A stretch of 64,000 nucleotides of DNA from Candidatus Zixiibacteriota bacterium (GTDB lineage: Bacteria; Zixibacteria; MSB-5A5; GN15; JAAZOE01), in the NCBI GenBank assembly GCA_023138975.1, contig JAGLON010000018.1, forward strand, positions 32,381-96,380, read 5' to 3'. Of this stretch, positions 5,079 to 27,923 are shown piece after piece. Position 1 is the first letter of the stretch, and each line of letters starts with the position of its first letter. Made by a program: the position numbers and the translations under genes. The notes under the pieces were generated by a model. It worked only from the letters and a program-made list of their open reading frames with translations, had not been told where the DNA came from and searched no databases.

Positions 5079-5131
5079 TACTACATATCTATTCTTATTA
5101 AAACAACATGTAATAACGTCTGAGAGGTATC

Positions 5132-7897
5132 ATGAAATCGGCTATCCTAGTGTTTGGATTTGTAGTTCTTTCAGTATTATGTTGTCAACAGGTGAATGCG
5201 CAGAACTGGGAAGAGTCATTGAAAACCGCTGATTCTCTTGCCGAATTGCATAACTACGATTCTGCAATTGTGGTTGGGAACCTGGCATTGATGCATGCTG
5301 AGAAAGAATTCGGCAAGGAAGATACTGTAGTTGCAAACGTATTGTGTCGCTTGGCACTTTATTATGAATCCCTACGTAAATTTGCCGAAGCTGAGCAACT
5401 AATTATACGGTCAACAAAAATAAGAGAGAATATCCTGGGATCAGATCACATAGATGTTGCAAGGCGCTTGAACTCAAGGGCGATTCTACTCTCGAGACAG
5501 GCCAAATATGCTGAAGCTGAACCGCTCTTTGCCCGGGCGTTGGCAATTAGAGAGAAGGTCTTCAGTCCGGACCATGCGGAAGTGGTGAGGAGTATCAACA
5601 ACCTAGCGATTATCTACAAGAAGCTAGGCATGTATGCCGAAGCAGAATTGCTTTATAATCAAGTACTGACAATCGCAAAACAAACACAACATCCACAAAT
5701 GGCTATGTTCCTACGTAACTTGGGGAGTCTTTTTTGGACTCAATGTAGATATCAGGAAGCTGAACCATATCTTATTCATGCATTGACCACAAATGAGAAT
5801 AATTTTGGCCTTGAGCACTGGGCAGTGGCGTCAAACTTGGGTCTACTTGCAAAATTCTACCGTGAGCAAGGCAGATATGATAAAGCCGAGCCGCTTCTCC
5901 TGCGGGCACTGGCCATAAACAAGAAGATCTTTGGTCCAGAGTACCCTGCGGTATCGGAAATCCAAAACGAACTTGCAAATCTTTATGTAGAGTTGGGCAA
6001 AAACGCAGAGGCCGAGGCACTGTATAACAAGGCACTAGCAATCAGAGAAAGAGCTCACCAGAATCACGATCTTGTTGCTGAGACTCTCGAACGAATGTCC
6101 AGGCTATGTCGTATTGAGAAGAACCAATCTGAAGCACTTGAGCTTGCCAAACGTGCCTGTCGGATAAGATTGAAGAACCTCTACGATAACATAGCCTTGA
6201 GTTCTGAAAAGGACGCTCTTGCGTTCTCTCAGAGTTCGAGAAACTCAGTAAACAACTACTTGACTTGCTTCATTGATCTTCAGCCTGCAAATGGTGCTTT
6301 CACCAAGGAAACAGCCAATATAGTCTACAGTAACAAGGGTCTTATTTCCGACGGTATATTTGAAAGGCAAAAGAGCATCGTTCGAGAGACTGATTCTGCC
6401 ACTTTGGCTCTGGCCGAGTCCTTCAAATCTACCAAATCTCAATTATCGAAGCTTTTCGTCAAGGGTCCAGGCGCGGACATACAGGTTTACCGGAAAGAAG
6501 TAGATTCGCTCGAGAGTTTCGCCATTCAATTGGAAGCCAACCTTTCACGCCGAAGCGCCAGCTTCAGACAATATAAAGATAACAGAGATATCAGCGTCAA
6601 TAGACTGGCCTCACTTCTGAGTTATAAGGATATCCTTGTTGAATATTTGAAGTATGACTACTATCAAGTCAAACCTGATAGCAGTATTCCTCGTTACTTG
6701 GCGGTTCTATTAACGAATGAAGCCAAGCCAATTATTGTCAACCTTGGCGATGCTACTGAGATTGAACAGTCAATCGACATGTATCGCAAGCATATGGCAT
6801 ATATCTCGACTGCCGGTTCAGTAGCCACTTTAGCTGACCTTGAGGACTACGGCAGGATTTCGCGCAAGCTCCATCAGCTAATCTGGCAACCGATTGAGGG
6901 GTTTATCGTCGACAAAGAACTAGCGTTGATTGCTCCTGATGCAGCCCTCAATACAATATCTTTTGCAGGTCTGGTAGGCAGCGATGAATCCTATTTGATA
7001 GAGAGTTGTGCTATCCACTATTTGTCAGCCGGGCGAGATATTATTCGTCTGAATGCTCTCTCTGAATCAGGGGTCGGGTTATTTGCTTTGGGAAACCCTG
7101 ACTATGATGCGTCAGCCTCGGATCGCTCAATAGGGCTGCCGGAGTCGGCAAGCGCTATCACGAAAATCGACTATGCTGTTAATAGAAATATTCGTTCAGG
7201 TTGTGGAGAACTTAGTGAGATCGATTTGTCTCCATTACCTGGATCCAATTTGGAAATCCAAAATATAGCAGCAATCTGGGAAGGAACAATGGATGAGCTG
7301 GCAGTCATCTGTTTAGGTAGAAACGCTACCGAAGATAGGTTTAAAGTAAATGCACCCGGCAAGCGTGTTATTCACTTGGCCACACATGGTTATTTCCTTG
7401 GGGGCGATTGTGAATTAGACATGGCGGAAAACAGATATGAATCTAAGATTAGATGGACTGGTGAGAACCCCTTACTTCATTCGGGCCTGTTTTTTGCCGG
7501 TGCTAATCATCATGGAGAGGGTGCTGATAGTGCCGGTGTCGAGGATGGGATATTGACGGCATACGAAGTCTCAGCTTTAGATTTGCTGGGAACTGAGCTT
7601 GTGGTCCTCTCGGCGTGCGAAACCGGGTTGGGGAGGATTCAGTCAGGAGAAGGCGTGTATGGTCTACGTCGTGCGTTTCAAATAGCCGGTGCCGAGACTG
7701 TAATAAGTACTCTGTGGTCTGTGTCTGATCAGATGGCCGCAGAGATGTCGAGCAAGCTTTATGACAGAAAGGGCGTGTCTCTACCAGATACGATTCGACG
7801 AATCCAACTAGAAAAGATTGATGAACTGCGGCGACAGAATAAAGTCGATCACCCGATAAGTTGGGGCGCTCTGGTTGCGTACGGCAATTGGCGCTAA
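5132..7897 (+). CDS. Exported TPR-repeat CHAT-domain (caspase-fold) protease, copy 1
   Basis: The signal peptide reads MKSAILVFGFVVLSVLCCQQVNAQ. Multiple TPR_12-like repeats follow the pattern AEAEPL..RALAI.EK..G..HP.VA..LNNLA.LY. The CHAT dyad is intact: IHLATHGY (His codon 7385-7387) and LVVLSACETGLG (Cys codon 7616-7618). Confidence 0.85.
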   Translation: MKSAILVFGFVVLSVLCCQQVNAQNWEESLKTADSLAELHNYDSAIVVGNLALMHAEKEFGKEDTVVANVLCRLALYYESLRKFAEAEQLIIRSTKIRENILGSDHIDVARRLNSRAILLSRQAKYAEAEPLFARALAIREKVFSPDHAEVVRSINNLAIIYKKLGMYAEAELLYNQVLTIAKQTQHPQMAMFLRNLGSLFWTQCRYQEAEPYLIHALTTNENNFGLEHWAVASNLGLLAKFYREQGRYDKAEPLLLRALAINKKIFGPEYPAVSEIQNELANLYVELGKNAEAEALYNKALAIRERAHQNHDLVAETLERMSRLCRIEKNQSEALELAKRACRIRLKNLYDNIALSSEKDALAFSQSSRNSVNNYLTCFIDLQPANGAFTKETANIVYSNKGLISDGIFERQKSIVRETDSATLALAESFKSTKSQLSKLFVKGPGADIQVYRKEVDSLESFAIQLEANLSRRSASFRQYKDNRDISVNRLASLLSYKDILVEYLKYDYYQVKPDSSIPRYLAVLLTNEAKPIIVNLGDATEIEQSIDMYRKHMAYISTAGSVATLADLEDYGRISRKLHQLIWQPIEGFIVDKELALIAPDAALNTISFAGLVGSDESYLIESCAIHYLSAGRDIIRLNALSESGVGLFALGNPDYDASASDRSIGLPESASAITKIDYAVNRNIRSGCGELSEIDLSPLPGSNLEIQNIAAIWEGTMDELAVICLGRNATEDRFKVNAPGKRVIHLATHGYFLGGDCELDMAENRYESKIRWTGENPLLHSGLFFAGANHHGEGADSAGVEDGILTAYEVSALDLLGTELVVLSACETGLGRIQSGEGVYGLRRAFQIAGAETVISTLWSVSDQMAAEMSSKLYDRKGVSLPDTIRRIQLEKIDELRRQNKVDHPISWGALVAYGNWR

Positions 7898-7925: not shown

Positions 7926-8612
7926 CTACGGATCTATTTTAAAAGTATATTTAAGCTTACAGGTTGTTGAATTAGAGCCAGCGCAGGTGACAATCAAGTG
8001 ATATGAACCGGGCTTCATCACCCGGTTAGGGATAATAATCTGCCCCATGCCGCGCTCATCAATCGAGCCAAAAGAGTCCAAGCGCACTACTTCTCCACCT
8101 CGATCGTCGATAACCAATAAGTCATAGAGTCTGCCGGGTGAGTAGTCGGGAACCGCAAAACTTATCGCGGCATCCAGGCCTGCCCCAATAGAGAGCACAT
8201 TAGTTGCAGTAGCGCGGGTTGGTATGAGACGTATCATCTGTACTGGTCGAACATCTCCGGTATCCCCAATCATTACACGCAATCCTATTAGAGTTGGAAT
8301 GACCATCAGGAGTACAAGCAACAGACAGATAGCTGGCTTGAAAACCAAAGGAGCGTCCGGCCACAGATACCGGATCAGTGTCTTCGTTGAAGTAATACTC
8401 TGAGTGGGCTGGGCATGTCGAGCCATTGCCTTTTTTATCTTCGAGCTGTTACGAAGCACTCCTGCATACTTTTCAAATGCGACTACTTCGTTCAGACAGT
8501 GCTCGCATTGCATCAGATGAATCTCCAGACGCTTCTCATCTTCGTCAGAAAGCGCACCCAGTTCATAGGCCGGCAACAGAGCACCCAGATTCTTGTCGGT
8601 GCAGTTTGTCAT
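7926..8612 (-). CDS. Single-pass zf-HC2 anti-sigma factor with extracytoplasmic beta-rich domain, copy 1
   Basis: The zinc-finger motif is HLMQCEHCLNEV and the TM segment is AICLLLVLLMVIPTLIGL. I prefer the start at 8612 (MTNCTDKNLGALLPAYELG). It makes an ATGA overlap with the sigma stop and aligns with the paralogue MKTACVDKSIGSLIHAYELG. Confidence 0.75.
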   Translation of the reverse strand: MTNCTDKNLGALLPAYELGALSDEDEKRLEIHLMQCEHCLNEVVAFEKYAGVLRNSSKIKKAMARHAQPTQSITSTKTLIRYLWPDAPLVFKPAICLLLVLLMVIPTLIGLRVMIGDTGDVRPVQMIRLIPTRATATNVLSIGAGLDAAISFAVPDYSPGRLYDLLVIDDRGGEVVRLDSFGSIDERGMGQIIIPNRVMKPGSYHLIVTCAGSNSTTCKLKYTFKIDP

Positions 8613-9148
8613 ACCTTGTACCCTCCCAGGCTCAGGCATTTTCTGAGCATCGTCCGGCCGCGGTGGAGCAATACATGGCAGTTGCTATTGGAAATAGTCA
8701 TGATTCGGCATATTTCCAAAGTCTTGTACCCTTGGTAAACCAGGCTTAAAACTTGAGCAAACCTGCTGTTCTCGGTTGTTATTTTCTCCAGGCAATTCAG
8801 AATGCTAGCCTCCAAATCGGGATCGACATCCTTGGCTCGAATGTTCTGAAAGTCATTAACGGACTGCTCCGAGGTAATCCGCTTGTTTTCGACCGATGTG
8901 CGACGAAAGTAGCTCTTGATGTTGATCTGCAGCACCCCCCATGCCCATTCATCGAAGCCTACGGTGAAAGTCTCTGCCTTGTATTTTTCAAGTACAGTTA
9001 TACAGGAGTCTTGCACAACATCTTCTGCAGCTTCCCTATCCCTGATTCTATGTGTCGCAAAAAGACTAAATCTTACATGCAGATATTGAAAAATCTTTTT
9101 CTCGGCTGTTTTGTCGCCGTCTCTGGCTTGTTGCAGTAATTGTTTCAT
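8609..9148 (-). CDS. ECF-type sigma-70 family factor, copy 1
   Basis: 179 aa. The region 2-like segment is AAEDVVQDSCITVLEKY...FDEWAWGVL and the region 4 HTH is VYQGYKTLEICRIMTISNSNCHVLLHRGRTMLRKCL. It is a clear paralogue of 25975-26502. Confidence 0.85.
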   Translation of the reverse strand: MKQLLQQARDGDKTAEKKIFQYLHVRFSLFATHRIRDREAAEDVVQDSCITVLEKYKAETFTVGFDEWAWGVLQINIKSYFRRTSVENKRITSEQSVNDFQNIRAKDVDPDLEASILNCLEKITTENSRFAQVLSLVYQGYKTLEICRIMTISNSNCHVLLHRGRTMLRKCLSLGGYKV

Positions 9149-9645
9149 GTTGCTCGATATCGCTCCTACGCCGGAGTTTACGCGCTGAATGCTGGCTGGA
9201 ATAAGACACTCACGAGCCTAAACAACCCTCTACCCTGACCATATATCATTGAAAGACCCACTAAATATAGACCTTGAACCCGATATGTACAATCAAAAGT
9301 TTCATTATATCTGTAAGAATCGGCACCCCTATCACCACACTATACTGTGTGAGTGAGCGTCTCGGAAGAGAACGCCCGAGAACGAACACCCTAATTGGAG
9401 AGGATGCTAAGGACCGTGTCCTGAGTAATAGACTAGCCGACTTATGAATTATGGAAATGGATTGTTTTCACACATATGCATAACTCACGCTTTACCGCCT
9501 AACGGAGATAATAATTAAATTGATGCGCAGTTCGTACAGGATTTTTTGAATATGAGCTAGAATAAGGGAGGGCATCCTATGTAAAAAATAGTCTTTGGAT
9601 AAAAAACGTTCAATTAGAAAATTAAACTAACCAACTGGAGGTTCT

Positions 9646-15800: not shown

Positions 15801-18800
15801 ATCGATTTTCAGCTATTACATTATCAGCATCAATTGTCGAATCAACTATAAGTTCTTGTCCAACATCGACTCTGTGCCCGAATCTCTTAACGCGTTCAGA
15901 AGACAAACTCCAGTCATTCCCGGGATTGGCAGCAGAATCTACGCGAGAATTATACTCTTTAGAATAGGCTAATTCTGCATAAGGGTATTGACCACAATCA
16001 GCACCTGGTCCAGATGCACTGTAGTATTGTGTAGCTTCTGCATGTGCTTGAATTTCATTACTGTAATCCATTAATCCATTTGGTGCTATTTGATCAACAA
16101 AGGGAAGGTAATTTCGGATTACTCGTCCTCTTGCATCTATTTGTCTAGTATCCCCAACTATTACAGAACCACTACCATCTTCACTCTCTTGAATGCGAGT
16201 TTGAACGATTTGTCCCAAACCATCTGAAAACGTTACGCTGGTGGTAGAATCAACATCAGACCTGAACTTTATTGATTTATTCCAGTTTAATCCCGCTGAA
16301 GTTAATACAGTTGAGTATTCAGTCCTGGACAGGACATTTCCTCGATGATTATAGGTAACGCTATCTCTACCAAAAGTATCGGATTTTGAGATAATAGGGA
16401 GATTGTCTGTTCCGGCAATGGCTACACTCCGTCCCGTAACCGGATCGAAGACTGTAGTATTGATTGCGGCATCAAGCGGATGGAATCTGAAATCATCAAA
16501 ATATGCCCAGGCATCCAGTACATCCGTCATGGCTACTCTGAACTGAAAATCGTCCAGCAAATAGGCAACAGATGAAATATCAAAAACACCTTCCACTCTT
16601 GTCCATTCTGTGCTACTAACTTCCGTAAATTTAATAGAGTTATTGGGAATTGAAATGGGATTGTCATACATGTCCCATCCAAAACAAAAGACGACTATAG
16701 TATCTGTCGCTTTCACCCATCCCGAAAAATAGTATCGTGTATCCGTAAGACTATCCGCACTAAAATTTCTTTTAGGTCCCCAATTATAATCATTGCTACC
16801 ACTATTGTCTCTGACTCTAAAGCAATACTTACCTGTGAACGCGTCATCGTCTATGATTTGATGATGATAATCATCAAGCATGACCCAACTATCCCATCCA
16901 TATCCTTGTTCGAAGTCCTGTACCAAGAAATCATTGGGATAGCAATTTACTGCACGGGCCACGATCATTAGTCCATCTTTCCCCAGTTTAACACAAGAGC
17001 TATCGCCCTCACCGTTGACCGAAGAAACCATACTTCCGAATTCATTAAAGCTTTCTCCATTAGGCAACACTTCTTGAATAATCACTTTACCGGTTTCTGT
17101 ATCCTGGTCTTCCCATGTATACGATTGAATTGCCCCCCATGTACCATTCAAGGCAAAATCGACACCATCTTTATTCAGTACTGTTGCAACGCCATCATTA
17201 TCAAGGAAATTAATTCTTTTGGCTACCAATGTGATGGCATTGTCATCTGCTAAGCCAGAATATGCAGGCAAATCAGCAGCATAAACTATCGAATCTACCA
17301 TGAATGAATTGTTGAACTTATATTTTGTCCTAGTTGATACAAGCCGCCCCTTGTCATTCTCGTGCAAATACTTCACATCATTAGCAATAAGGTCTTGCCT
17401 TGTATGGACCGAATCCAATTGTACCCTGTACACACAATCAGGATAGTTAGGCGGTTGATATACTGAATAGTAATTTCGTGTCGTGTCGTTACAAACAGAT
17501 GCATTATCACCTGTCGTAAAGGTGTAATTCAGGTACTCTAAACCATCCAGAAAATACCCGCCGTCTTGTAGTCCATATGTTATTGAGTTTTCTAAATCCG
17601 GGAATGTAAATCCCGGAATTCCGGACACGCTAAAAGTATTATCATCTACGTCATTGTAATAACAATGGACCTCATATCCTTCAGGAGAGCTCTCAGTAGT
17701 GAATGGAAGGGAAACGGTTGATCTTGCAAATCGAGGAATTGAAGTCGACTCATCAAGTATTCCACCAAAATAACTGAAGTTAACCCTGACGGGAGCAGTG
17801 TCATACTGAGTCTCATACGATAGCAAATAATCTACAACCGGATAGGCAGCTTTGCCTGAGAATTGAGTACCGTATTTTCTAAAACAATAGTGTTTAGTTT
17901 CTGAGGAAAGCTTCTGAGCAATATAGAAACTTGAGGGCGTAGAAAAAGCAAGAAAGTGTTGTGTGCTTCCTGGAGTGTCCATTACACTGGAAAGATCATT
18001 AGTGACCCAGGCCCCATTTTCCCAAGTATAAAGCATAGCATGTTTGTTACTATTATCCATGGCCAGGATGTAATTATCTTGTACAGTAAATGCCATGGAA
18101 TTAGGGTATCCATCAGCAGGGTCATCGACATCTTCATCGTCATTTCCGACATATGCTTCTGACAGGAGAGTTGTTGTTGCACTCCATGTAGTATTATTAA
18201 TAAGTCTTTTTGCTTTAAGAACACCTTGTGGTGACATTGTCACTATGAGATTATCCAATACGCGAATTTCACTTTCATCTGGTACTGAGCCAAAATCAGT
18301 TACAACCCATTGAGAGGTTCCCGTCCATTGCCATATTTGAAGTGAATTGTAATGTCTGGTAATTACCAAATTTTGTGAAGACATCATGGTTTCGTAGAAC
18401 TCTGATCCACTATAGTCATCTCCCACATATCGAGCTGGGGTTCGGACCCAACCATTTGCTCCTCTAATCGCTGAGAAAGCATATGCCTTTTTCCAATATG
18501 GGGTCACCGTGTAATCCATTTTATAACGTTCCCAGAATATAGCATTGTCAGTTAACACTCTACCCAATGGTGCTGTTACAGAGTCTACCCAACCGCCTCC
18601 ATGTCTAATAAATGTATCAACCGGATCTGGATGAAGCCATGCAGAACCACTCCAGTCAGCTATTCCAAGGCTGGTATAAATATATGAGGGACTAAAATAC
18701 TCATTTTCAATTGGCCATGCACAGTATTCGCTGGTTTGCGTGGCTCTGGCGCGGCCATCAAATTGCAATAAAGAGGATTCCAACCCTGAGGCAAAGCTTA

Positions 18801-20661
18801 TGCCCTGGGTATCGTGTAGATACTTACCAATAACGGATTTCGTAATTGTTTCCGTGCTATAATTACGACCGAAATGAATGAACGGCATATCCGGTGAACA
18901 AGAATAATTGAGAATGAACATAGGGTCGCCGTTTACATCATGTAGTCCGTTTTGCTCATATAGGACATTTGCAATCCATTGTTCACCATCCCATTTATAC
19001 ATATAACAATGTCTTGTTTGCCATCCATCTCGTTCGTCGTTGAGGATATGCGGATCCATATCATATGCCATGATATAATCATTGCCTGCAAATAGTCGAA
19101 CTCTTTCGCCTACTGGCGTCCAACTGACAGAAATAATTTCTAATTTCCAGTATCCGTTCATCCATCGCTTCACAACTATTCGATTATTAGTTCTGTCAAA
19201 CTTTGCAATCCAACCATCAGGAGATACAACGGGGTAATCTTTTTTACTGGTCGCGGTATGAGTGTCAATATCCCAATCCCAAAATCCATTCCAAGTTCCA
19301 TAGAGATCTTTATTTGCAGAAATACCGCTTGAAGGAGCGCGATCAAGGATGAACGAATTACCCGCAACAGATATTTGATATCGTTCCATTTGCTCAGAAA
19401 GTTTTACTGACAAGTCTGCAAAATTACTATCTGCCTCAATTTCTTTATAGTGAACTTGCATTTCACCGTCAAATGGGTTCGTTATTGCGCTGATCGCCCC
19501 ATAGTTAACATCGGAAATACTTGTATAGTAATCGAAGTGAGTCGGATCGAGCTCTGAATCTCCTAAGATAGAAGTTTTATAAATATCAGATAGCAGTAGC
19601 TTCTTGTATGTTGCACCGCCACTAGGATTAAGAAATGAATAACTAAATCTGACGCCTGACACATCATCATCAGAAGGGCCAGAGACATTGATGCTGTCAA
19701 GCTTATGTGTGCTATAGTATTGAGGCCTACTATCCGGATAGTACTCAAAGCAATCCTCCCTAACAGAATAAGCAAAACGTATGGCCGCACCTCCCGGGCA
19801 GGAAATTGTAGAGATATTTGATTCGCTAGTATATTGAGTACTAGATAACTGCGAAGAGTATCCCGTGTATACTCGTACACTTTTAGTCGTTTGATCATAG
19901 GAATAGTCTATTGCATTAAGATTCTCTGTGTCTTGAACTTTCTGTAAATCCCATTGAGTAGGATACAATGAAGGATAAGCAGAAGCTCCTGGGGAGAAAC
20001 TATTCCACCAACGCAATTGATACCGGGTTGCATTTCTCAACGTTCCATCATCAAAATCGCCGAATTTATATATCAATCCATTATCTTTTATAATCTGCCA
20101 TCCAGTTACAACCGATGTTCCATCTATTGTGCCTGTTGAGCGCGTTATAATCCATGGACTGCCGGTATTGGTAGTATATTGATTGTCCTCTAAAGGGATT
20201 AATTCTGTCGCACCACTTCCAAAATTGTAGTAATACTTATCATCTTCAAGTGAGACCGTATTAAAAGTAACTGCAACAACAGCTTCGGTCGGGATTGAGA
20301 AGCCCATGCCAATGGTTGAAGCTTGACTAACGTTATTTGGCTTATGGATATTGGCGGCAACCGCACCATTATAACTCAATGAGACAGAAACACCCATCCC
20401 ATTTCTCCCCGGTATTGAGACTAAAGGAATAACCTCTTTATGCTGCCCGGAGAATAAATCAACTGTGGCAGCGATATTCATATTACTTCCCGCGGTAGCC
20501 AGATTACTACCCTTAGTAGAAGCCTCTAAGCCCGTTTTATCTATAGGCAAACCCATGCTCTGCGCAAAAGATAATTTTGCTAACAATATCAATATAATTG
20601 CACATAGATAGAGAATTCTATGAAATTTAATACTTGTAACCGACATAATCCATCCTCTCAT
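12805..20661 (-). CDS. Giant secreted SpvB/TcB-N-like plus RHS/YD-repeat cocoon protein with C-terminal polymorphic toxin region
   Basis: 2618 aa with a signal peptide (LYLCAIILILLAKLSFAQS). The TcB/SpvB-like N-terminal motif reads IPLVSIPGRNGMGVSVSLSYNG...GMGFSIP. A CBM4_9-like jelly-roll segment lies around aa 1290-1440. YD repeats occupy the C-terminal third. The RHS core end reads YYHFMDHQQS...FGARFYNAETGQFVSTD...AGNNPTIGVDPNGYW and is followed by a ~302-aa tail. Confidence 0.85.
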   Translation of the reverse strand: MRGWIMSVTSIKFHRILYLCAIILILLAKLSFAQSMGLPIDKTGLEASTKGSNLATAGSNMNIAATVDLFSGQHKEVIPLVSIPGRNGMGVSVSLSYNGAVAANIHKPNNVSQASTIGMGFSIPTEAVVAVTFNTVSLEDDKYYYNFGSGATELIPLEDNQYTTNTGSPWIITRSTGTIDGTSVVTGWQIIKDNGLIYKFGDFDDGTLRNATRYQLRWWNSFSPGASAYPSLYPTQWDLQKVQDTENLNAIDYSYDQTTKSVRVYTGYSSQLSSTQYTSESNISTISCPGGAAIRFAYSVREDCFEYYPDSRPQYYSTHKLDSINVSGPSDDDVSGVRFSYSFLNPSGGATYKKLLLSDIYKTSILGDSELDPTHFDYYTSISDVNYGAISAITNPFDGEMQVHYKEIEADSNFADLSVKLSEQMERYQISVAGNSFILDRAPSSGISANKDLYGTWNGFWDWDIDTHTATSKKDYPVVSPDGWIAKFDRTNNRIVVKRWMNGYWKLEIISVSWTPVGERVRLFAGNDYIMAYDMDPHILNDERDGWQTRHCYMYKWDGEQWIANVLYEQNGLHDVNGDPMFILNYSCSPDMPFIHFGRNYSTETITKSVIGKYLHDTQGISFASGLESSLLQFDGRARATQTSEYCAWPIENEYFSPSYIYTSLGIADWSGSAWLHPDPVDTFIRHGGGWVDSVTAPLGRVLTDNAIFWERYKMDYTVTPYWKKAYAFSAIRGANGWVRTPARYVGDDYSGSEFYETMMSSQNLVITRHYNSLQIWQWTGTSQWVVTDFGSVPDESEIRVLDNLIVTMSPQGVLKAKRLINNTTWSATTTLLSEAYVGNDDEDVDDPADGYPNSMAFTVQDNYILAMDNSNKHAMLYTWENGAWVTNDLSSVMDTPGSTQHFLAFSTPSSFYIAQKLSSETKHYCFRKYGTQFSGKAAYPVVDYLLSYETQYDTAPVRVNFSYFGGILDESTSIPRFARSTVSLPFTTESSPEGYEVHCYYNDVDDNTFSVSGIPGFTFPDLENSITYGLQDGGYFLDGLEYLNYTFTTGDNASVCNDTTRNYYSVYQPPNYPDCVYRVQLDSVHTRQDLIANDVKYLHENDKGRLVSTRTKYKFNNSFMVDSIVYAADLPAYSGLADDNAITLVAKRINFLDNDGVATVLNKDGVDFALNGTWGAIQSYTWEDQDTETGKVIIQEVLPNGESFNEFGSMVSSVNGEGDSSCVKLGKDGLMIVARAVNCYPNDFLVQDFEQGYGWDSWVMLDDYHHQIIDDDAFTGKYCFRVRDNSGSNDYNWGPKRNFSADSLTDTRYYFSGWVKATDTIVVFCFGWDMYDNPISIPNNSIKFTEVSSTEWTRVEGVFDISSVAYLLDDFQFRVAMTDVLDAWAYFDDFRFHPLDAAINTTVFDPVTGRSVAIAGTDNLPIISKSDTFGRDSVTYNHRGNVLSRTEYSTVLTSAGLNWNKSIKFRSDVDSTTSVTFSDGLGQIVQTRIQESEDGSGSVIVGDTRQIDARGRVIRNYLPFVDQIAPNGLMDYSNEIQAHAEATQYYSASGPGADCGQYPYAELAYSKEYNSRVDSAANPGNDWSLSSERVKRFGHRVDVGQELIVDSTIDADNVIAENRFNRWGDFSQAVVHYSVNSTPRTSIRTSYADLRGRDTLIVIDTLSSTSAVEIQKNYFNQLDYTDSTWNRDYGTIRILYDRNGSVRFTQNDKQLVNNEFTYMKYDRNGRGTEEGVMGSADVYFTKARAENRYFPQSSHNPIVKFKFTFDYFVTSMNDTLLAPGRLVRVENGNSTYYREFIRFPANDSDLVITKLPNLYYRKAVGHSYNIRGDIVSNTFYPRYPSTTGKRKTELNYDQMGRLYELSNGDITGSSRQVYAQYLYNAASNPTTINFGLHKKYVSPGVYDIDTLQPFSYEYNSRSYLTSINDLSNIATTLAGCGSDTLHFAQSMDFGDSDPSAHHNGRVSSIESSTSISGAVRNHGYQYSYNELGWMTNADHVVDTWRNCEYNYNALGMRMSKVENTVSSEYTYWPNSSKLAIYTGCNLGQFLHYDEVGNLLSDPKSGIYQIKFDYRDLMTESALDPSLYNGRLDTLYFKYDEAERRIVKRYAYQIQVDCDPPDPYEIEIGGGKSNTIKPGIDTKDQTELSQEESAGHEKKSCIKNVNTEIYYLYDMGKVVATFKKGDIVEEYYINGLPGRIATYRYNSDNHLYYHFMDHQQSERMAMSGRFSFDPSVVQSIDYNPFAKVVHSIGNYHPRYTYTDKEMDGESSFDLYCFGARFYNAETGQFVSTDKAGQYVSRYLFAGNNPTIGVDPNGYWFGIDDLIVAAVSFTVGYITHGIQTGEWGWEAVEAGGKAAAAAWLGYNTGGMIGGWTSTPGTGAHAMISSTVSAGVSTASSQVMNEQKIGGRQFWSSLAGGAAGSAWGFYLDSDPLSSAFIGGAVQGGISEGSIRGVVIGGHTGFASGLMTHYAYTAYGKILTNKKLGEGAYGTDAEGIEGNHDDLRRQLKENFGMTDAEIEVIIADAKENYSCHDFALDLENSGLPKGAKRVIFEGQSHSAIDLGGTPYGQRYMLSKHGQALIIRVDTGRQLSTGTWLNYNIPAGYENTPYSPVYGPWRNSSE

Positions 20662-20832
20662 TTAACTCCCAACAACCAACACATCAAGATATTACTCAGG
20701 GATAGAGCGCCAAGCATGACATTCTAAGGCATCGAATTTGTCAATCCGATGCCTTTTCAATTTAGTGAATATTATTGTGCCAGAACATCATAACACTACT
20801 TGGTGTCCTTCTCAATAATACATTCCGAAGAT

Positions 20833-21138
20833 CTAACGATTGCCATCGTCGATGGGCTCTTCATGTGGAATTGGCCAATCCATCCATTTTGGTGGACAGG
20901 TAGAACAATATGTATAATACCCGCACTTGCTACCATCTTCAAAATATCCCCGCCAATATTGTACAATCACACCATCTGGTCCACGAGGACAGACACAAGG
21001 CGTGCTGGTGAAGACATATGTTGGTTGATAAACAGGGCACCATAATGCTTGTGCATCATTCGGGGTAACAAGAGTAATACCGACTCCAAGTGATAATGCA
21101 AAAGCAAATGTTGCTAGGGCAACCACAAATTTTCTCAT
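20833..21138 (-). CDS. Small secreted Cys-rich protein (6 Cys in ~70-aa mature part)
   Basis: The signal peptide reads MRKFVVALATFAFALSLGVGITLVTPNDAQA. The mature part contains WCP, PCVCP, KCG and YCSTCP. A good RBS (AAGGAG) lies 8 nt upstream. Confidence 0.6.
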   Translation of the reverse strand: MRKFVVALATFAFALSLGVGITLVTPNDAQALWCPVYQPTYVFTSTPCVCPRGPDGVIVQYWRGYFEDGSKCGYYTYCSTCPPKWMDWPIPHEEPIDDGNR

Positions 21139-21182
21139 AGACTCACTCCTTTTCTAATTTTTGGTTATATTTTAAGTAATAA

Positions 21183-21746
21183 TCACATGTGATTTGACAA
21201 AAATCGACTATTAATCAAAGGAATATACCCGGACGAGATAAATACCATAATACCATTATTATTCACTCCAACAATTGTTGGAAAACCGTTTATTAAATTG
21301 CTTTCGAGAAATTCATTCGATATATAATATGAAGGTATAGAATAATTCTCAGTGAAATATCCAGGATCACTTGATAACAAGATTAATTGACAATTGTCAT
21401 CCTTTAGAATACTTTCCCTTAACATAGCCTCTACAAACACCTTACATGGATCGCACCCCTCAGACACAAAACCAATGATAGTACTATAGCCATTAAGTAA
21501 GGAGTCTATATTTACTGTTTTACCTATTGAGTTTGAAGCTGAAATTACCGGCAGGCTTTCACCTATAGAAAATGAAGTTTTATTAAGCAAATCTGAAGGC
21601 GAGATTGTATTAGGACGTAAACTATCTAAAATACTCGTATTCGATGCGATAGTAACTCCGGTTTTCACACCAGCTATCATTATTACAGCAATACCAATTA
21701 TATAGAGTATTACCTTGAACAAAGGTTTTAGTTTTTTATAAATCAT
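21183..21746 (-). CDS. Membrane-anchored thioredoxin-fold (TlpA/ResA-like) thiol-disulfide oxidoreductase
   Basis: It has an N-terminal TM segment (VILYIIGIAVIMIAGV) and a CxxC motif in the typical context IIGFVSEGCDPCKVFVE. Confidence 0.6.
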   Translation of the reverse strand: MIYKKLKPLFKVILYIIGIAVIMIAGVKTGVTIASNTSILDSLRPNTISPSDLLNKTSFSIGESLPVISASNSIGKTVNIDSLLNGYSTIIGFVSEGCDPCKVFVEAMLRESILKDDNCQLILLSSDPGYFTENYSIPSYYISNEFLESNLINGFPTIVGVNNNGIMVFISSGYIPLINSRFLSNHM

Positions 21747-22086: not shown

Positions 22087-25000
22087 CTAATCCGGTTTTC
22101 CGGTCAATACAAAGCCACCCCATAATAACGGATGCGCAGAACCTTTTTCTGCTCTGGATCTCTTGATAATACCAAGAGCTGATTCTCGGAGCGCATCCCG
22201 CTTTGACATACCACCGAGCCATTGTTTATAAAATTCTTCCATCAACTCAGCGGTTTGTTTGTCAGGAACTTTCCATAGACTCATTAGAATCGATCTAACC
22301 CCCGCATGCTGAAAAGCTCGGCGAAGACTAAATACTCCCTCACCATGCACCAATTCGCCAACACCGGTTTCGCATGCTGATAGAGTTGCAAGTTCAGTTC
22401 CGACAAGGTTCAATCCCGAAACTTCAAAAGCCGTCAGGATACCGTCTTCACCTTGCGGAAGGTTCCCTTCGTCAAAGTTCATTATACGGTTAGCCCCGGC
22501 TAGGATCAACCCTGATTTGAGTAAAGGGTTTTTTATAGCACTATTATCCCCTCCAATTATATCCTCACAAATAAACCCATGGGTTGAAAGATGCAATATT
22601 TTAGGAGGTGTAATAATACTTTTTAAAACTTCTTCATTTGCGTAAGTACCATAATATTCATTAACATCCATACTACTATTTTTTCTAATGCTCTTTACAA
22701 TTGAGTTCGCCTCCTTACGGCTGAACCTCAACCGCGCAAACTCTTCGCTAAAACAATCAGGTAAATCCCTAAATTGTTCTCCTATCGTAACAGAGCTCGT
22801 TTTCGGTGTATCTTCTTTATCAATACTCAAGACACCCAAAATTGACTCATCAAAATCAGGATCGGCTAATACTAGTGCATCCCTCGCGTGAATTGAGAGA
22901 CCTCTGTCAAACATTGCTAAATCACGAACTGATGAAAGATAGCTTATTCCGTATTTTTCAATCACATATGTATCATCGGGAGTAGGGAGTATCTCAAACG
23001 GTAAAAGGTTGAGCATACCATCAGGCGATATATATATATTAGTTTGGCCATCTAGATGAGAAGCCAAAGGTGCAAACAATAGACTATAAAGATTTCTGTT
23101 TATACTTTTTAGGCATTCTTCTGATTCAATTATCTGAGTTGAATAGACATCTTCTTGCGAATTGTATATTGTTTTTCTAGAGAAGCTTATCAGGCTATCA
23201 ATTTTATGTGCTTCTCCGAGATCAATAATATCAATCTTGCCAGAATGAACGAGAATAAAAGCCAAATATCTGGCATTGCCTACTCTTTCAATGTCATTAC
23301 CGGGGATACTAAAATCATATGGATCATACCTGACATATTCCCATAATACAACATCTTCAGAAAGGGATTGTGCAACTTCTGAAATATCTAATCGTTTTAC
23401 TATCAAGTTCTTATTGAATTCTAAACACAATTGCCCCAATTCAGTTTCAAGTGAATCTTGGATATTATACAGGACTTGAATACTATCACGGAAAATACCG
23501 TTTAGGTTACCGCTAAAACTTCTTAAAGCTATATTGGCTATCTTTGTATATATATCAGAACGTTCTTTAAGTTTATCTATAACTTTTTGATTGCTTGAAC
23601 AAAAAGCCGCTTCTTTTTCAGCCATGACTGCATCAATAACAGAGGATTTACCTTGAAGTACCATATTAAAAGCTTCATGTACAATATTCTCATCTTTGTT
23701 TAATAAAGCAAGCGACAGAAACGAATTGTCTATAAGAGGATATTTTTTTATCCATCTTAATTTCTGACTTTCAGATGAAGAAGTAAACACATACTCCATA
23801 AATTTTTGCCGAGCTCGTAATGATTTTTTATAGTTCTCCATGCTAATACTGTATTTGCCGGTGCAAGCATACAGCTTAGCTAAATTTGCTCGCATCTCAA
23901 TCACAATCGGATGTAATGACGTTAATACCCTCTCATTAATAGTTATAGCTTGCATATAGAAGGGTTCGGCTATGATATACTTGCCTTGGCTATAATACAG
24001 ATTACCTAGTCGGTGTAATCCGAAAGCTGTTTGCTTATGTTCAGGCCCATAAACTTTTTGTTTAATGGTGAGCGCCTTTTGTATAAGAGGTTCAGCCTCT
24101 GCATATCTTCCTTGTTTGGTATAAAGGTGCCCTATACGATTCAAAACATCGGCGACAGTAAGGTGTTCAGAACCATTGAGTCTTTCAAAGACATTAAGTG
24201 CTTTGAAAAAATATTGTTCAGCATCAGAATATTCAGATTGTACTACTTTGGAGGATGCGAGGTCGCACATAATTTTTGCTACTGAAGGGTGATCCCCCCC
24301 AAGTGTATTAACGATAATAGTTAAGGCTTGCATAAATAAAGAATCAGCTTCAATATATTTACCTTGTTTGAAATAAAGAACTGCTAGGTTGTTCAAAGAG
24401 TTTCCGACATCCGGGTGTATTGAACCAAGCCTGCTCTTCCGAATTGCTAATGAGCGTTTATGAGCTAATTCGGATTCAGCATAATTACCTTGAACATCAT
24501 AGAGATTACCTAAATCACTTAAATTGAAGGCTGCTTCTAAACTTGTTGCCCCATAAGTATTTTCACAAATATCTAATGCCCGTACAAATTTAGACTCAGC
24601 TTGGGAATATTTATTTTGGTTTTTATATATAATCCCTAAGATGTTAAGATCATTTGCAATCAGTGGGTGTTCAGTACCAAGATATTTTTCTCTGATTGCT
24701 AATGAACTTACAGCATATGATTCGGCTTCACCAAACTGTCCTAAATCTACATTGATAAGGGCTAGTTTATATAAAGTTTTAGCAATATCAACGATTTTGG
24801 GGTCTGTGACATTCTGTTTGATTTTTAATGCCTGTTTGCAAAACTTCTTGGACTTAATAAATTCTCTTTTTTTGTAATGATATTTGGAAAGACACTCTAA
24901 AATAGAAACAATTTCAATATCTGTTCTATCATATCCTGATTCCGCCTGCTCTAAGGCAAGATTCCCAAGAACAATTGCAGAATCAATATTATCTAAATCA

Positions 25001-25110
25001 TAAAGAAAATCAGCCTTTCGTAATAACTCTTGCTGATTTTGTGCTTCAGTCTGTTGACAACACAGGATTGAAATGATAATTAGTACAAATAAAAGAAGTC
25101 TCATCCTCAT
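22087..25110 (-). CDS. Exported TPR-repeat CHAT-domain protease, copy 2
   Basis: The signal peptide MRMRLLLFVLIIISILCCQQTEAQ shares the CCQQ..AQ ending with copy 1. It has many TPR_12-like repeats. The CHAT dyad is intact: ILHLSTHGF (His) and LATLSACETGVG (Cys). Confidence 0.85.
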   Translation of the reverse strand: MRMRLLLFVLIIISILCCQQTEAQNQQELLRKADFLYDLDNIDSAIVLGNLALEQAESGYDRTDIEIVSILECLSKYHYKKREFIKSKKFCKQALKIKQNVTDPKIVDIAKTLYKLALINVDLGQFGEAESYAVSSLAIREKYLGTEHPLIANDLNILGIIYKNQNKYSQAESKFVRALDICENTYGATSLEAAFNLSDLGNLYDVQGNYAESELAHKRSLAIRKSRLGSIHPDVGNSLNNLAVLYFKQGKYIEADSLFMQALTIIVNTLGGDHPSVAKIMCDLASSKVVQSEYSDAEQYFFKALNVFERLNGSEHLTVADVLNRIGHLYTKQGRYAEAEPLIQKALTIKQKVYGPEHKQTAFGLHRLGNLYYSQGKYIIAEPFYMQAITINERVLTSLHPIVIEMRANLAKLYACTGKYSISMENYKKSLRARQKFMEYVFTSSSESQKLRWIKKYPLIDNSFLSLALLNKDENIVHEAFNMVLQGKSSVIDAVMAEKEAAFCSSNQKVIDKLKERSDIYTKIANIALRSFSGNLNGIFRDSIQVLYNIQDSLETELGQLCLEFNKNLIVKRLDISEVAQSLSEDVVLWEYVRYDPYDFSIPGNDIERVGNARYLAFILVHSGKIDIIDLGEAHKIDSLISFSRKTIYNSQEDVYSTQIIESEECLKSINRNLYSLLFAPLASHLDGQTNIYISPDGMLNLLPFEILPTPDDTYVIEKYGISYLSSVRDLAMFDRGLSIHARDALVLADPDFDESILGVLSIDKEDTPKTSSVTIGEQFRDLPDCFSEEFARLRFSRKEANSIVKSIRKNSSMDVNEYYGTYANEEVLKSIITPPKILHLSTHGFICEDIIGGDNSAIKNPLLKSGLILAGANRIMNFDEGNLPQGEDGILTAFEVSGLNLVGTELATLSACETGVGELVHGEGVFSLRRAFQHAGVRSILMSLWKVPDKQTAELMEEFYKQWLGGMSKRDALRESALGIIKRSRAEKGSAHPLLWGGFVLTGKPD

Positions 25111-25288
25111 AAAACCACATTAATATTCCTATAACAAGATAACAATTGGGGAGTATATAATAGCTCAATTTAATACTTGTTAATATAATGCTAAATATAA
25201 CTATAGCAAGCTTAATCTTAATGCCCACAGAAGGTTCATTTACATTTTTAGAAGACTAACATTAGGATTTTATTATTTCCTTATTATT

Positions 25289-25978
25289 TTATTTAGGCTG
25301 AATAGTAAATCTATATTCCTGAATATTTGAGATAGTATTCCCGTTAGGATCACTTATAGTTAAACAGTACCTTCCTTGTTGCAATAAGTTACCAGATATT
25401 AAAAGATGCCCCCGGTCATATTCATCAAAGTTCTTATAGGATTGTTCACTATAAATAATTTTTCTGGAATCATCTTTAATATCAATATAATAACTTTTTC
25501 CTAGAACACTTCCTTCATATACAAAAGAAACTACAATATCCTGTTCGGCCATTGAGATTGGCACTTTTACTGTCTTTGATCGAACAGGGAAAAGCTGTAT
25601 GGACTGAATGGATTTAACGCTTGATATTGAAGTAAAATGCAAACCACGAGAAGCAGGATAAATAAGAAGTAAGACTAATAGTACAGGTATAGCAGGTCTA
25701 AGTATTACTGGAATATTGGGCCATAAATAAGTCCATATCTTATTAAGAAACGATGATTTTACAGAAATGCTATTATCAAGTCGCCGAATCTCATTTTTAA
25801 CGAAAGGATCCTTAAGTATCATTGCAGGGCGAGGACTGAAATCCTTAACTTCAGATGCACAATAGTCACATTTCATAAGATGTTGCTCAAAACACTCAGA
25901 TTTCTCTTCTGAAAGCAATCCCAATTCATATGCATGAATAAGTGAACCAATCGACTTATCAACACAGGCAGTCTTCAT
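25289..25978 (-). CDS. Single-pass zf-HC2 anti-sigma factor, copy 2
   Basis: The zinc-finger motif is HLMKCDYCASEV and the TM segment is AIPVLLVLLLIYPA. The C-terminal beta-rich domain is paralogous to copy 1. It has a 4-nt ATGA overlap with the sigma gene. Confidence 0.75.
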   Translation of the reverse strand: MKTACVDKSIGSLIHAYELGLLSEEKSECFEQHLMKCDYCASEVKDFSPRPAMILKDPFVKNEIRRLDNSISVKSSFLNKIWTYLWPNIPVILRPAIPVLLVLLLIYPASRGLHFTSISSVKSIQSIQLFPVRSKTVKVPISMAEQDIVVSFVYEGSVLGKSYYIDIKDDSRKIIYSEQSYKNFDEYDRGHLLISGNLLQQGRYCLTISDPNGNTISNIQEYRFTIQPK

Positions 25979-26502
25979 TTATTGACCTTTCTGCCATAGA
26001 CACAATCGCTTAACAATCCTCGACACCTATGGAGTATCACATAGAAATTATTTGAGCTTACTTTCAATTGATCACATATTTCTTCCGTGCTATAACCATA
26101 ATTAACTAAACTTAGTACCCGAATATACCTGGGATAAACCTTTGCAAGCTTTTCAAGACATCGAATAAGTATTCGCCTTGCTTCTGGATTCTCTTGCGTA
26201 GGATAAATATTATCAATGTTATCCATTATTTTAACAGCCCTATTTCGGACCGAAAGATCTCTCAAATGGCTACCTATTTTGTTTCTGAGGATCTTGTATG
26301 CCCAAGCCTCAAATTCAATATTAGGCGAAAGATCTTTGTATTTCTCTACTACAGTAACACAGGCATCCTGAGCAATATCTTCAAAACTATCATCTCGTAA
26401 TCTTTGTTGCGCAATTATAGTAAATCTTACACGAAGGTATTTAAACAGTTCCTCTTCCGCTGATTTATCTCCACTAATTGCTTTTGCTAATATTTGTCGC
26501 AA
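25975..26502 (-). CDS. ECF-type sigma-70 family factor, copy 2 (TTG start)
   Basis: 175 aa. MRQILAKAISGDKSAEEELFKYLRVRF parallels copy 1. The region 4 HTH is VNYGYSTEEICDQLKVSSNNFYVILHRCRGLL. The start is TTG, with AAGGAA 7 nt upstream. Confidence 0.8.
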   Translation of the reverse strand: MRQILAKAISGDKSAEEELFKYLRVRFTIIAQQRLRDDSFEDIAQDACVTVVEKYKDLSPNIEFEAWAYKILRNKIGSHLRDLSVRNRAVKIMDNIDNIYPTQENPEARRILIRCLEKLAKVYPRYIRVLSLVNYGYSTEEICDQLKVSSNNFYVILHRCRGLLSDCVYGRKVNK

Positions 26503-26616: not shown

Positions 26617-27105
26617 TTATCTCAAAATAGAATCGTCAGAGATCACCTTAAGGTCTCCTGTTTGATCCATTTCCCATTGATCGATAGGAGGATCATCATC
26701 TAAATGATCAGCAGTGGCAGTTACAGTAAAATGCTCAGCATCTCCGGCTATTTCATAACGATAGCGAGCAGATTTCATTATCTCCACACCCAAAGTATCA
26801 AAGGCATAAGGATTATTCCTGTCAGCAAAAATGCCAGCATCCGGAATCCAATATTCATCATGACTTTGAAAATAGGCTCGTTCTGATAAATATATTTGAT
26901 TTAACAAACCTTTGGCCTCTGTTTGTTTACTCCTTGTCGTATAAGCCATATATCTGGGTATTGCCAAACCGGCCAATATTCCGATAATAACAAGAACAAT
27001 TAAAAGCTCTATAAGTGAAAAACCAGTCTGCTTTTTTATTTGTTTTCGCGTAGTATTATTCTTTAGAAAACGCGATATAGTTTCGAACTTTCTTGGTTGA
27101 GACAT
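26617..27105 (-). CDS. Major type IV pilin/pseudopilin with unusually long (30-aa) leader
   Basis: The sequence ...KQIKKQTG|FSLIELLIVLVIIGILAGLAIP has the G-1, F+1 and E+5 positions. An ATG at 27105 has AAGGGA upstream. There is no in-frame ATG/GTG/TTG between it and the cleavage site. Confidence 0.8.
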   Translation of the reverse strand: MSQPRKFETISRFLKNNTTRKQIKKQTGFSLIELLIVLVIIGILAGLAIPRYMAYTTRSKQTEAKGLLNQIYLSERAYFQSHDEYWIPDAGIFADRNNPYAFDTLGVEIMKSARYRYEIAGDAEHFTVTATADHLDDDPPIDQWEMDQTGDLKVISDDSILR

Positions 27106-27583
27106 CTGTATTTCCCTTATATGAAACCGATAATTCAATTGAATAAAGTGAAGAATGCAGGTTCTTTTGTGTTTCTGGTTCTAATATAACCGAGTCATCT
27201 TGTTTTGTAAATATATCTTGAGAAATTTTTATAAAGCTTACTGAAGATCCTTCGCGGTTGATAACTGTACCGTTTCGTACAAAATCTCCTTCTGATAGTT
27301 CATATACAGTTGAATCCTTCAGAGAATAGAAAACCGCTCTGTACGAAGTCGAATCATACAGGACTTTATCACATCTGGCAATCTGGTGTGATAATTCCGT
27401 TAGAAGAAACTCCCGTTCTTCAACTAATACATTTGCTTGTGACCAACTGGCAAGGGTCTTATGAATAAACAGATTTGCCGAGACTAAAACCAGTAACAAT
27501 AACCCTGTAAGGGATAATGCCACGACAAGTTCCATCAGCGTAAAGCCTTTTTGATTATTACTCAGCCGGGATAGCGAATTCAT
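27056..27583 (-). CDS. Minor pseudopilin (prepilin-type N-terminal domain)
   Basis: The leader and mature N-terminus read MNSLSRLSNNQKG|FTLMELVVALSLTGLLLLVLV. Confidence 0.7.
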   Translation of the reverse strand: MNSLSRLSNNQKGFTLMELVVALSLTGLLLLVLVSANLFIHKTLASWSQANVLVEEREFLLTELSHQIARCDKVLYDSTSYRAVFYSLKDSTVYELSEGDFVRNGTVINREGSSVSFIKISQDIFTKQDDSVILEPETQKNLHSSLYSIELSVSYKGNTDVSTKKVRNYIAFSKE

Positions 27584-27923
27584 AATAGAGCCTACATAAT
27601 ATTTTTTCTTTGGAGTGTCTTTTTACTTCCACATTCACTTTCGCAAGATTATCACTGACCGTCACTCTTTTCATCACACTGTATTTCACATTCGACTGAA
27701 TCACTACCAAGTTTTGAGAGATAGTATCATGTGAGACAATAACCATTTCCAGATTGTTTTGAGCAATGCGATTTGCCGTTGAAATCTCATCTACTGAATA
27801 GTTGACCATGAGCTGGCTCAACATGAATATAAGAACTGAAAAACCAAGCATGAAGATAAACGCTCCAACTAGAACTTCAACGATTGTAAATCCTTGCTCG
27901 TTTTTCAAGATTTCGCTATTCAT
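27558..27923 (-). CDS. Minor pseudopilin (GspI/PilV-like size)
   Basis: The leader and mature N-terminus read MNSEILKNEQG|FTIVEVLVGAFIFMLGF. The protein is 121 aa. Confidence 0.7.
   Translation of the reverse strand: MNSEILKNEQGFTIVEVLVGAFIFMLGFSVLIFMLSQLMVNYSVDEISTANRIAQNNLEMVIVSHDTISQNLVVIQSNVKYSVMKRVTVSDNLAKVNVEVKRHSKEKILCRLYYEFAIPAE

Follow-up and report, generated by a model that had tools for sequence, protein, structure and literature searches.

The 64,000-nucleotide stretch of contig JAGLON010000018.1 analysed here (assembly GCA_023138975.1, Candidatus Zixiibacteriota bacterium; referred to below as the window) carries, at 22,087–26,502, neighbouring genes for a sigma factor of the extracytoplasmic function (ECF) type, a single-pass anti-sigma factor and an exported protease composed of tetratricopeptide repeats (TPR) and a CHAT domain. 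We call this set module 2 and its products sigma 2, anti-sigma 2 and CHAT2; a paralogous set, module 1, lies elsewhere in the window (Table 1). The trio constitutes a conserved signalling cassette that occurs mostly in uncultured Zixibacteria. On balance we think that it probably forms a single envelope-to-cytoplasm signalling device, comparable to a split version of the anti-sigma factor DdvA, in which the protease would act in trans as the site-1 protease.

The case for a unit comes from a survey of sigma-factor relatives, drawn from 30 loci in species-representative genomes, almost all labelled Candidatus Zixiibacteriota, and from a further 68 metagenome loci, supplemented by contig look-ups. 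Two architectures are seen. In type A the sigma gene is accompanied by genes for an anti-sigma factor of 212–250 amino acids and a TPR-CHAT protein of 860–1190 amino acids. In type B it is paired with an anti-sigma factor of about 760 amino acids carrying a fused periplasmic TPR region, and CHAT is missing. A TPR-CHAT gene is present in all 24 non-redundant loci that have a complete short anti-sigma gene and enough downstream DNA (22 co-directional, two convergent) and in none of about 40 type-B loci. The trio occurs in many different genomic contexts, and 23 of the 25 type-A sigma factors fall in one clade (bootstrap 94). An additional trio with a more divergent sigma factor, L109, was reached by starting from the CHAT protein, and CHAT homologues with identities of up to 35% stand alone. 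The short anti-sigma family is large in environmental data: an exhaustive profile search returned 258 clusters at 50% identity (E ≤ 1e-30), nearly all of 220–240 amino acids. A word-indexed homologue search, which gave 22 sigma and two anti-sigma matches, badly undercounts by comparison.

The three proteins were also compared for congruence. Neighbour-joining trees of 20 non-redundant trios, one for each protein, have supported clades in common and are congruent at resolved nodes. The corresponding distance matrices are correlated, with Mantel r values of 0.78 for sigma/anti-sigma, 0.71 for sigma/CHAT and 0.81 for anti-sigma/CHAT (all p ≤ 2e-4). One strong conflict appeared in the full-length CHAT tree. 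It is gone on 526 non-TPR columns, where a minor rearrangement among three close relatives remains, and we attribute the conflict to an effect of repeat alignment or local recombination. A preliminary description of this DNA had proposed the trio as a functional unit, to be checked by the congruence of the three trees; conservation in 24 of 24 loci in varied contexts, together with the congruent trees, upholds that proposal.

The type-B pairs (L005, L016–L018, L020–L026, L028–L035, L037–L038 and many metagenome loci) resemble the trios in having related sigma factors, the same zinc-finger N-domain, the promoter motif described below and divergently encoded secreted-protein neighbours. They differ in lacking a CHAT gene, in having TPRs of another type that are fused to the anti-sigma factor, and in sigma factors that form a separate group. 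The clustering of family loci seen in the window recurs in another Zixibacteria genome, where L009 (10001–19922) comprises two tandem trios and the type-B pair L020 lies about 28 kb away on the same 4.46-Mb contig (JAWLBI010000001.1). At L011 (11756–14733) the sigma and anti-sigma genes are normal, and the TPR-CHAT gene behind them, preceded by a 587-nt gap, is split into three open reading frames (ORFs) and is possibly a pseudogene.

Sigma 2 is an ECF (group IV) sigma-70 factor. This protein of 175 amino acids matches Sigma70_r2 at 39.9 bits (cut-off 24, E = 3.7e-10), Sigma70_ECF at 33.2 bits (cut-off 21.1) and the NCBIfam sigma70-ECF model TIGR02937 at 63.8 (cut-off 42.9). Region 4_2 scores below its cut-off (18.6 versus 25.7), and no specific NCBIfam sigma subfamily is matched at cut-off, the best being TIGR02989 at 68 versus 124.6.

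Anti-sigma 2 belongs to the class I or zinc-binding anti-sigma (ZAS) type, with an N-terminal anti-sigma domain that contains the H-x3-C-x2-C signature. Among 25 family members His33, Cys37 and Cys40 are invariant and Cys5 nearly so. The zf-HC2 score of anti-sigma 2 is 19.3 bits (E = 0.0012), below the cut-off of 22.2 that is exceeded by anti-sigma 1 (Table 1), and the family profile matches the ZAS anti-sigma factor RslA (3hug_B, E = 5.6e-5). An AlphaFold2 model consists of a helical N-domain, a transmembrane helix and a β-sandwich, with a predicted local distance difference test score (pLDDT) of 80–90 for residues 150–228. A Foldseek search with this model gave only generic Ig-like and cupredoxin-like β-sandwich matches. 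Residues 129–134 form a conserved L-x-P-x-R-S loop.

CHAT2 is built from a signal peptide, about ten kinesin-light-chain-type TPR pairs, a middle region of helices and β-structure and the CHAT domain (Pfam TPR_12, 1.5e-70; TPR_10; CHAT, 1.2e-66 and 225.6 bits). A signal-peptide-like N-terminus is present in CHAT2 and in nearly all trio CHAT proteins. The AlphaFold2 model has a pLDDT of 86.7 and a predicted TM-score (pTM) of 0.84. Foldseek aligns it with separase, Csx29 and DdvA at E values of 1e-11 to 1e-13, over some 950–1300 columns; at the sequence level the sole Protein Data Bank match of the CHAT part is DdvA (8rot_B, E = 0.01). Neither His844 nor Cys913 varies among 16 trio proteins and 47 wider homologues. 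With a CHAT domain bearing the His–Cys dyad placed after a TPR superhelix, CHAT2 is a TPR-CHAT protease of the separase/Csx29/DdvA fold.

A further shared element is a short motif, TG[T/A/C]AAGa-N16–17-A[A/C]C, which 49 of 86 non-redundant loci carry upstream of the sigma gene and on the strand opposite to it. The divergent ORF, where present, often begins 33–100 nt downstream of the motif. The products of these ORFs are secreted proteins with dockerin or type IX secretion system (T9SS) tails, and TSP_3/SGL, FG-GAP, M28, PKD and Fib_succ_major domains are found among them. An nhmmer model built from the intergenic copies detects 31 sense copies inside sigma ORFs and nine other matches, most of them intergenic and 5–262 nt upstream of co-oriented ORFs. 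Two other interpretations of the motif were discarded. It is not read in the direction of the sigma gene, since every extra copy, read from TGNAAG to AAC, stands ahead of an ORF of the same orientation. Nor is it a continuous inverted repeat or invertible switch: the similarity of the internal and intergenic copies is restricted to two blocks, in which arm identity is high, and is approximately random between them. TGNAAG resembles the −35 elements TGTAAC, TGAAAC and TGCAAC of Bacillus subtilis SigX, SigW and SigM. We propose, with moderate confidence, that TGNAAG-N16–17-A(A/C)C is the cognate promoter of the family sigma factors.

Across 90 family sigma genes, synonymous sites in the internal copy are constrained. 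At this site (codons 24–26), 72 of 90 genes have T as the last base of the preceding codon (25% elsewhere), 77 of 90 have A as the last base of the Val/Glu/Ala codon (29% elsewhere) and arginine is encoded by AGR in 80 of 81 (33% elsewhere). The middle position of codon 25 is also the variable base of the motif, and the internal base equals the intergenic one in 42 of 49 loci. A broader scheme can be offered only tentatively. The exported caspase-like protease may be the trans trigger of a widespread Zixibacteria ECF pathway, comprising hundreds of sequence clusters, with the cognate promoter present also inside the sigma ORF; as part of the same scheme, the T, A or C of TGNAAG, as the middle base of the codon for Val, Glu or Ala, would shift with the external promoter. 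If this were true, sigma specificity, the sigma factor's own codon and the feedback expression of anti-sigma factor and protease would constitute one co-evolving unit. A promoter copy embedded in the sigma ORF would, if functional, represent an unusual overlap of coding and regulatory information.

We envisage the trio working as follows. The ECF sigma factor would be held inactive by the cytoplasmic zinc-finger domain of the anti-sigma factor, which would expose its small β-sandwich domain to the periplasm. The TPR-CHAT protein, predicted to be a caspase/separase-fold cysteine protease with an intact His–Cys dyad, should share a compartment with this domain because it appears to be exported by the Sec pathway. 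Its TPR superhelix may bind a periplasmic protein signal, upon which the CHAT domain would cut the periplasmic part of the anti-sigma factor in trans, as a site-1 protease. Cleavage would be completed by a site-2 protease in the membrane and by proteases of the cytoplasm, which would free the sigma factor. The latter would then probably read TGNAAG-N16–17-A(A/C)C, a motif that in most family loci points towards an adjacent gene whose product is secreted and has a dockerin or T9SS tail. Feedback would come from the sense copy within the sigma ORF, by which the anti-sigma and CHAT genes would be driven. We favour this split, DdvA-like reading because protease and β-sandwich share a compartment and co-evolve, and because fused DdvA provides a precedent.

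The co-evolution was resolved by domain in partial Mantel tests on p-distances, which were used in place of Kimura-corrected distances with the C-domain being very divergent. The periplasmic C-domain of the anti-sigma factor co-varies with CHAT given sigma (r = 0.62, p = 2e-4) and hardly at all with sigma given CHAT (r = 0.06); for the cytoplasmic N-domain and sigma given CHAT, r is 0.45. This is the pattern expected if the N-domain touches the sigma factor and the C-domain touches the protease. Anti-sigma 2 presumably inhibits the co-encoded sigma factor, as suggested by the correlation of N-domain and sigma and by the likely translational coupling at the ATGA overlap of their genes.

The same measurements bear on the idea that the TPR-CHAT protein is an output of the sigma/anti-sigma pair. 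In that case some other envelope signal would free the sigma factor, and the induced protease would attack foreign or damaged periplasmic proteins. The protease gene does lie downstream and in the same direction in 22 of 24 trios, it would be expressed from the sense candidate promoter within the sigma ORF, and the wider TPR-CHAT family occurs without sigma factors in cyanobacteria and other phyla. Nevertheless, once the third protein is controlled for, the periplasmic domain co-varies with CHAT and not with sigma, which fits touching partners better than a mere target gene. Furthermore, the correlation between CHAT and the short, β-sandwich type of anti-sigma factor is perfect, and the fused DdvA precedent places TPR-CHAT on the sensing side. 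We therefore regard an output role as unlikely.

Distinctly less likely still, in our view, is a non-proteolytic role similar to that of RseB, in which the TPR-CHAT protein would protect or gate the periplasmic domain of the anti-sigma factor and another protease would cut. Co-variation and co-localization would look the same under this arrangement, and it draws support from DdvA, whose dyad is in a resting state and whose dyad mutants have no phenotype (PMC11506125). The invariance of His844 and Cys913, and of the motifs around them, across the trio proteins and the wider homologues argues for selected catalysis.

Several points weigh against proteolytic signalling by the trio as we have drawn it. 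The mechanism is throughout an extrapolation from architecture and co-variation, and the co-variation tests take shared ancestry only partly into account. For module 2 the window contains no intergenic copy of the motif, and the copy inside the sigma 2 ORF is weak (E = 4.9). At L108 (4444–8198) a TPR-CHAT gene with a signal peptide starts 15 nt behind the ECF sigma gene, with no anti-sigma ORF between the two; this may be a two-gene variant. Co-transcription is not a requirement, since module 1 and L051 have the CHAT gene on the other strand. Finally, CHAT-dependent cleavage is unproven for DdvA itself (PMC11506125).

The two modules differ in composition, and the preliminary description had taken this difference to mean that they are old paralogues and not the result of a recent in situ duplication. 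The six 60-nt lines counted by hand for that purpose were reproduced exactly (GC contents of 0.35, 0.40 and 0.367 in module 2 versus 0.50, 0.50 and 0.467 in module 1). Overall GC is 0.356 in module 2 and 0.461 in module 1, at the 7th and 91st percentiles, respectively, of all 4.4-kb segments in the 64 kb (mean 0.417, s.d. 0.034). Codon usage differs as clearly, GC at third codon positions (GC3) being 0.24–0.28 in the genes of module 2 versus 0.44–0.53 in those of module 1. The low GC is regional. It extends over about 21–33 kb (0.32–0.39, compared with 0.42 for the window and 0.45–0.50 beyond 46 kb), a block that spans the thioredoxin-like gene, the trio and type IV pilus/secretin genes, and the lowest-GC 4.4-kb segment of the whole window begins at 22901. 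In nine other loci, from other metagenome-assembled genomes, the GC of the trio equals that of its flanks. The difference in GC is thus real and a weak argument about origin, because the pilus genes and a syntenic block at locus L001 are low in GC too.

Identity and phylogeny carry the conclusion instead. The modules are only 31–40% identical (Table 1) and are sisters in none of the three trees. Module 2 clusters with L001 in all three (bootstrap 84, 70 and 100 for sigma, anti-sigma and CHAT) and with L009 in the sigma tree (bootstrap 100). The closest relative of sigma 2, at 61% identity, is encoded at L001 (GCA_024449895.1), where the gene order (pilus, sigma, anti-sigma, CHAT, 191-residue protein, 101-residue protein, DUF6443) matches that of the window from 12.8 to 34.9 kb. 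The modules are old paralogues that belong to different clades, and the closer relatives of each are found in other metagenome-assembled genomes. From the trees and the synteny with L001, module 2 is an old paralogue inherited along with its pilus/thioredoxin-like/DUF6443 neighbourhood.

Two alternatives were considered for the origin of module 2. The first is that it arrived with the pilus genes on a horizontally acquired low-GC island of about 21–33 kb, its association with module 1 being coincidental. The regional GC, its minimum at 22901 and the low GC3 would all suit an island. The block of the same gene order at L001, with its sigma 61% identical, is also poor in GC (0.33–0.40), which makes the region old and speaks against recent import; neighbouring family loci also occur in other Zixibacteria (L009 and L020 on one contig). 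No integrase, tRNA or repeat boundary turned up, although no search for them was made. We consider such an island very unlikely. The second alternative, to which we give practically no credence, is that the adjacency of the genes is accidental or that module 2 arose from module 1 by recent local duplication. Nothing was found in its favour, and it is refuted by the low identity between modules, their placement in different clades and the retention of the trio in 24 of 24 loci.

The layout of module 2 given in the preliminary description was reproduced in every respect: three minus-strand ORFs in the order sigma, anti-sigma, CHAT, an ATGA overlap between the first two, a 178-nt gap ahead of the third, and a position between the pilus operon and the thioredoxin-like, Cys-rich and RHS genes. 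The sigma 2/anti-sigma 2 junction reads ...AATAAATGAAGACT..., and the gap becomes 184 nt if CHAT2 starts at Met3, as in the public call of a 1005-residue gene. Pilin genes (26617–27923) lie upstream of sigma 2. Downstream of CHAT2, on the same strand (12805–21746), are the genes for the thioredoxin-like, Cys-rich and DUF6443 proteins, and these three also come after the trio at L001; the last, of 2618 amino acids, is what had been called the RHS gene. The thioredoxin-like and Cys-rich neighbours have no NCBIfam match. A scan of 21.7–26.7 kb found no terminator-like site within the cassette, its 178-nt spacer included, and counts of sigma-70 promoter-like and terminator sites there show no excess over shuffled sequences. 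No terminator-like site was found between CHAT2 and the thioredoxin-like/Cys-rich/DUF6443 genes, no conserved sequence between the spacer and the spacers of about 200 nt at L001, L009 and L047, and no Rfam family in 20.5–27.5 kb.

Within the family a co-directional layout like that of module 2 is normal, and the convergent CHAT gene of module 1 is unusual: only 28 nt separate it from the anti-sigma gene, in contrast to the layout of 22 of the 24 trios. The convergent layout is otherwise confined to L051, whose CHAT protein is sister to CHAT1 (bootstrap 100). Since L051 has both the same layout and a sister CHAT protein, the inversion in module 1 is inherited and not an assembly artefact. Upstream of CHAT1, 889 nt (4243–5131) contain neither an ORF of at least 100 codons nor the family motif. 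Module 1 is flanked by genes for a T9SS-tailed C25 peptidase with FG-GAP repeats (19–4242) and for an S8 subtilase with dockerin and a T9SS tail (9646–12264). Peptidase genes similar to these are divergent to sigma at L002, L007 and L109.

Table 1. Features of the two modules and their surroundings (window coordinates)
Feature	Position	Strand	Basis and remarks
ECF sigma gene, copy 2	25975..26502	-	175 aa, TTG start; Pfam, NCBIfam
Candidate promoter motif, sense copy inside sigma 2 ORF	26406..26431	-	Pattern scans; TGTAAGATTTACTATAATTGCGCAAC, codons 24-33, R-V-R-F...Q-Q
ATGA overlap, sigma stop/anti-sigma start	25975..25978	-	Direct reading of the sequence
Single-pass anti-sigma gene, copy 2	25289..25978	-	229 aa; zf-HC2, family profile
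Zinc-binding anti-sigma motif H33-x3-C37-x2-C40 (with C5)	25859..25882	-	25 family members
Predicted transmembrane helix of anti-sigma 2, residues 96-118	25625..25693	-	AlphaFold2 helix, hydrophobic stretch PAIPVLLVLLLIYPA
Predicted periplasmic eight-strand beta-sandwich domain of anti-sigma 2, residues 125-228	25295..25606	-	AlphaFold2 strands
AT-rich 178-nt spacer, anti-sigma 2 to CHAT2	25111..25288	.	Coordinates
Exported TPR-CHAT (caspase-fold) protease gene, copy 2	22087..25110	-	1007 aa; Pfam, AlphaFold2, Foldseek
CHAT domain, residues 672-1004	22099..23097	-	Pfam CHAT
Catalytic His844	22579-22581	-	Alignment of homologues
Catalytic Cys913	22372-22374	-	Alignment of homologues
Membrane-anchored thioredoxin-like protein, CDPC motif	21183-21746	-	Same strand as CHAT2
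Secreted Cys-rich 101-aa protein	20833-21138	-	Same strand as CHAT2
Paralogous ECF sigma gene, copy 1	8609..9148	-	40% identity to copy 2; Pfam
Paralogous anti-sigma gene, copy 1	7926..8639	-	31% identity to copy 2 over full length; zf-HC2, 28.5 bits
Paralogous TPR-CHAT gene, copy 1	5132..7897	+	31% identity to copy 2; convergent with anti-sigma 1
Candidate promoter motif, intergenic copy upstream of sigma 1	9312..9336	+	TGTAAGAATCGGCACCCCTATCACC; faces S8 peptidase gene at 9646

Literature searches combining CHAT with ECF and Zixibacteria with sigma factor found no paper describing the trio, and CHAT is unmentioned in the main text of the 2021 ECF classification paper. If our reading is correct, a new class of protease would join the site-1 proteases of ECF signalling, and the cassette would provide an initial entry to the regulation of secreted and surface proteins, T9SS- and dockerin-tailed peptidases among them, in an uncultured phylum. 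The split arrangement would allow the cutting of an anti-sigma factor by a caspase-fold protease to be tested with two separate proteins; the family comprises at least 258 anti-sigma clusters, and two diverged copies are present within one genome.

The nearest known system is DdvA of Myxococcus xanthus, a ZAS anti-sigma factor with a fused periplasmic TPR-CHAT region, for which signal-induced, CHAT-mediated self-cleavage followed by RseP cleavage has been proposed and the RseP step alone demonstrated (PMC11506125). Both systems have an ECF sigma factor, an N-terminal zinc-finger anti-sigma domain, one transmembrane helix and a periplasmic TPR-CHAT region with a His–Cys dyad, and DdvA matches CHAT2 structurally over its full length. 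The ddvS-ddvA operon includes a C25-type peptidase (PMC11506125), and C25 or S8 peptidase genes flank module 1 and many family loci. In the trio, however, the TPR-CHAT protein is separate and bears a signal peptide, the anti-sigma factor has a small β-sandwich of its own and the sigma factor is not specifically DdvS-like. The phylum is also different: DdvA-like proteins have been reported only in Myxococcota and one Comamonas (PMC11506125). The cassette is not a DdvA-type anti-sigma factor because the defining fusion is absent, the two genes being 178 nt apart and CHAT2 having no anti-sigma domain; by analogy, it is probably the split-gene counterpart of fused DdvA. Further marks of the DdvA type are a CHAT active site without the three-helix motif and a dimeric, arrow-shaped assembly. 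For another, the control of a CBASS (cyclic-oligonucleotide-based antiphage signalling system) or CRISPR-Cas defence island, the trio shows no sign: the ORFs that were scanned with Pfam, up to about 35 kb of the window, include no recognizable CBASS or CRISPR genes, the neighbours being pilus, thioredoxin-like, Cys-rich, DUF6443 and peptidase genes, and PADLOC returned no defence model for the trio and its two downstream neighbours beyond a generic TPR match.

In the type III-E craspase, the TPR-CHAT protein Csx29 acts with Cas7-11 to cleave Csx30, which is bound to an ECF sigma factor (PMC10028731). The coupling of a TPR-CHAT protease to release of an ECF-type sigma factor through cleavage of its inhibitor is what we propose for the trio, and Csx29 (8eey_B) is the best full-length structural match to CHAT2 (TMt 0.51). 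Craspase, in contrast, is cytoplasmic, RNA-guided and cas-linked, whereas the trio combines a protease that bears a signal peptide with a membrane ZAS anti-sigma factor as the inhibitor. Since no cas genes were seen among the ORFs scanned and the protease is exported, the trio is not a craspase.

A functional parallel is provided by regulated intramembrane proteolysis of anti-sigma factors, as in RseA/DegS/RseP-RpoE and RsiW/PrsW/RasP-SigW. There, too, a separate periplasmic site-1 protease with a ligand-sensing domain licenses site-2 cleavage by cutting an anti-sigma factor of the single-pass type. The differences lie in the protease, here a caspase-fold cysteine protease with a TPR sensor and not a serine protease or metalloprotease with a PDZ domain, and in its being encoded in the same cassette as the sigma and anti-sigma factors. 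By this comparison the trio would work like regulated proteolysis driven by a site-1 protease, with a caspase-fold enzyme taking the place of DegS or PrsW.

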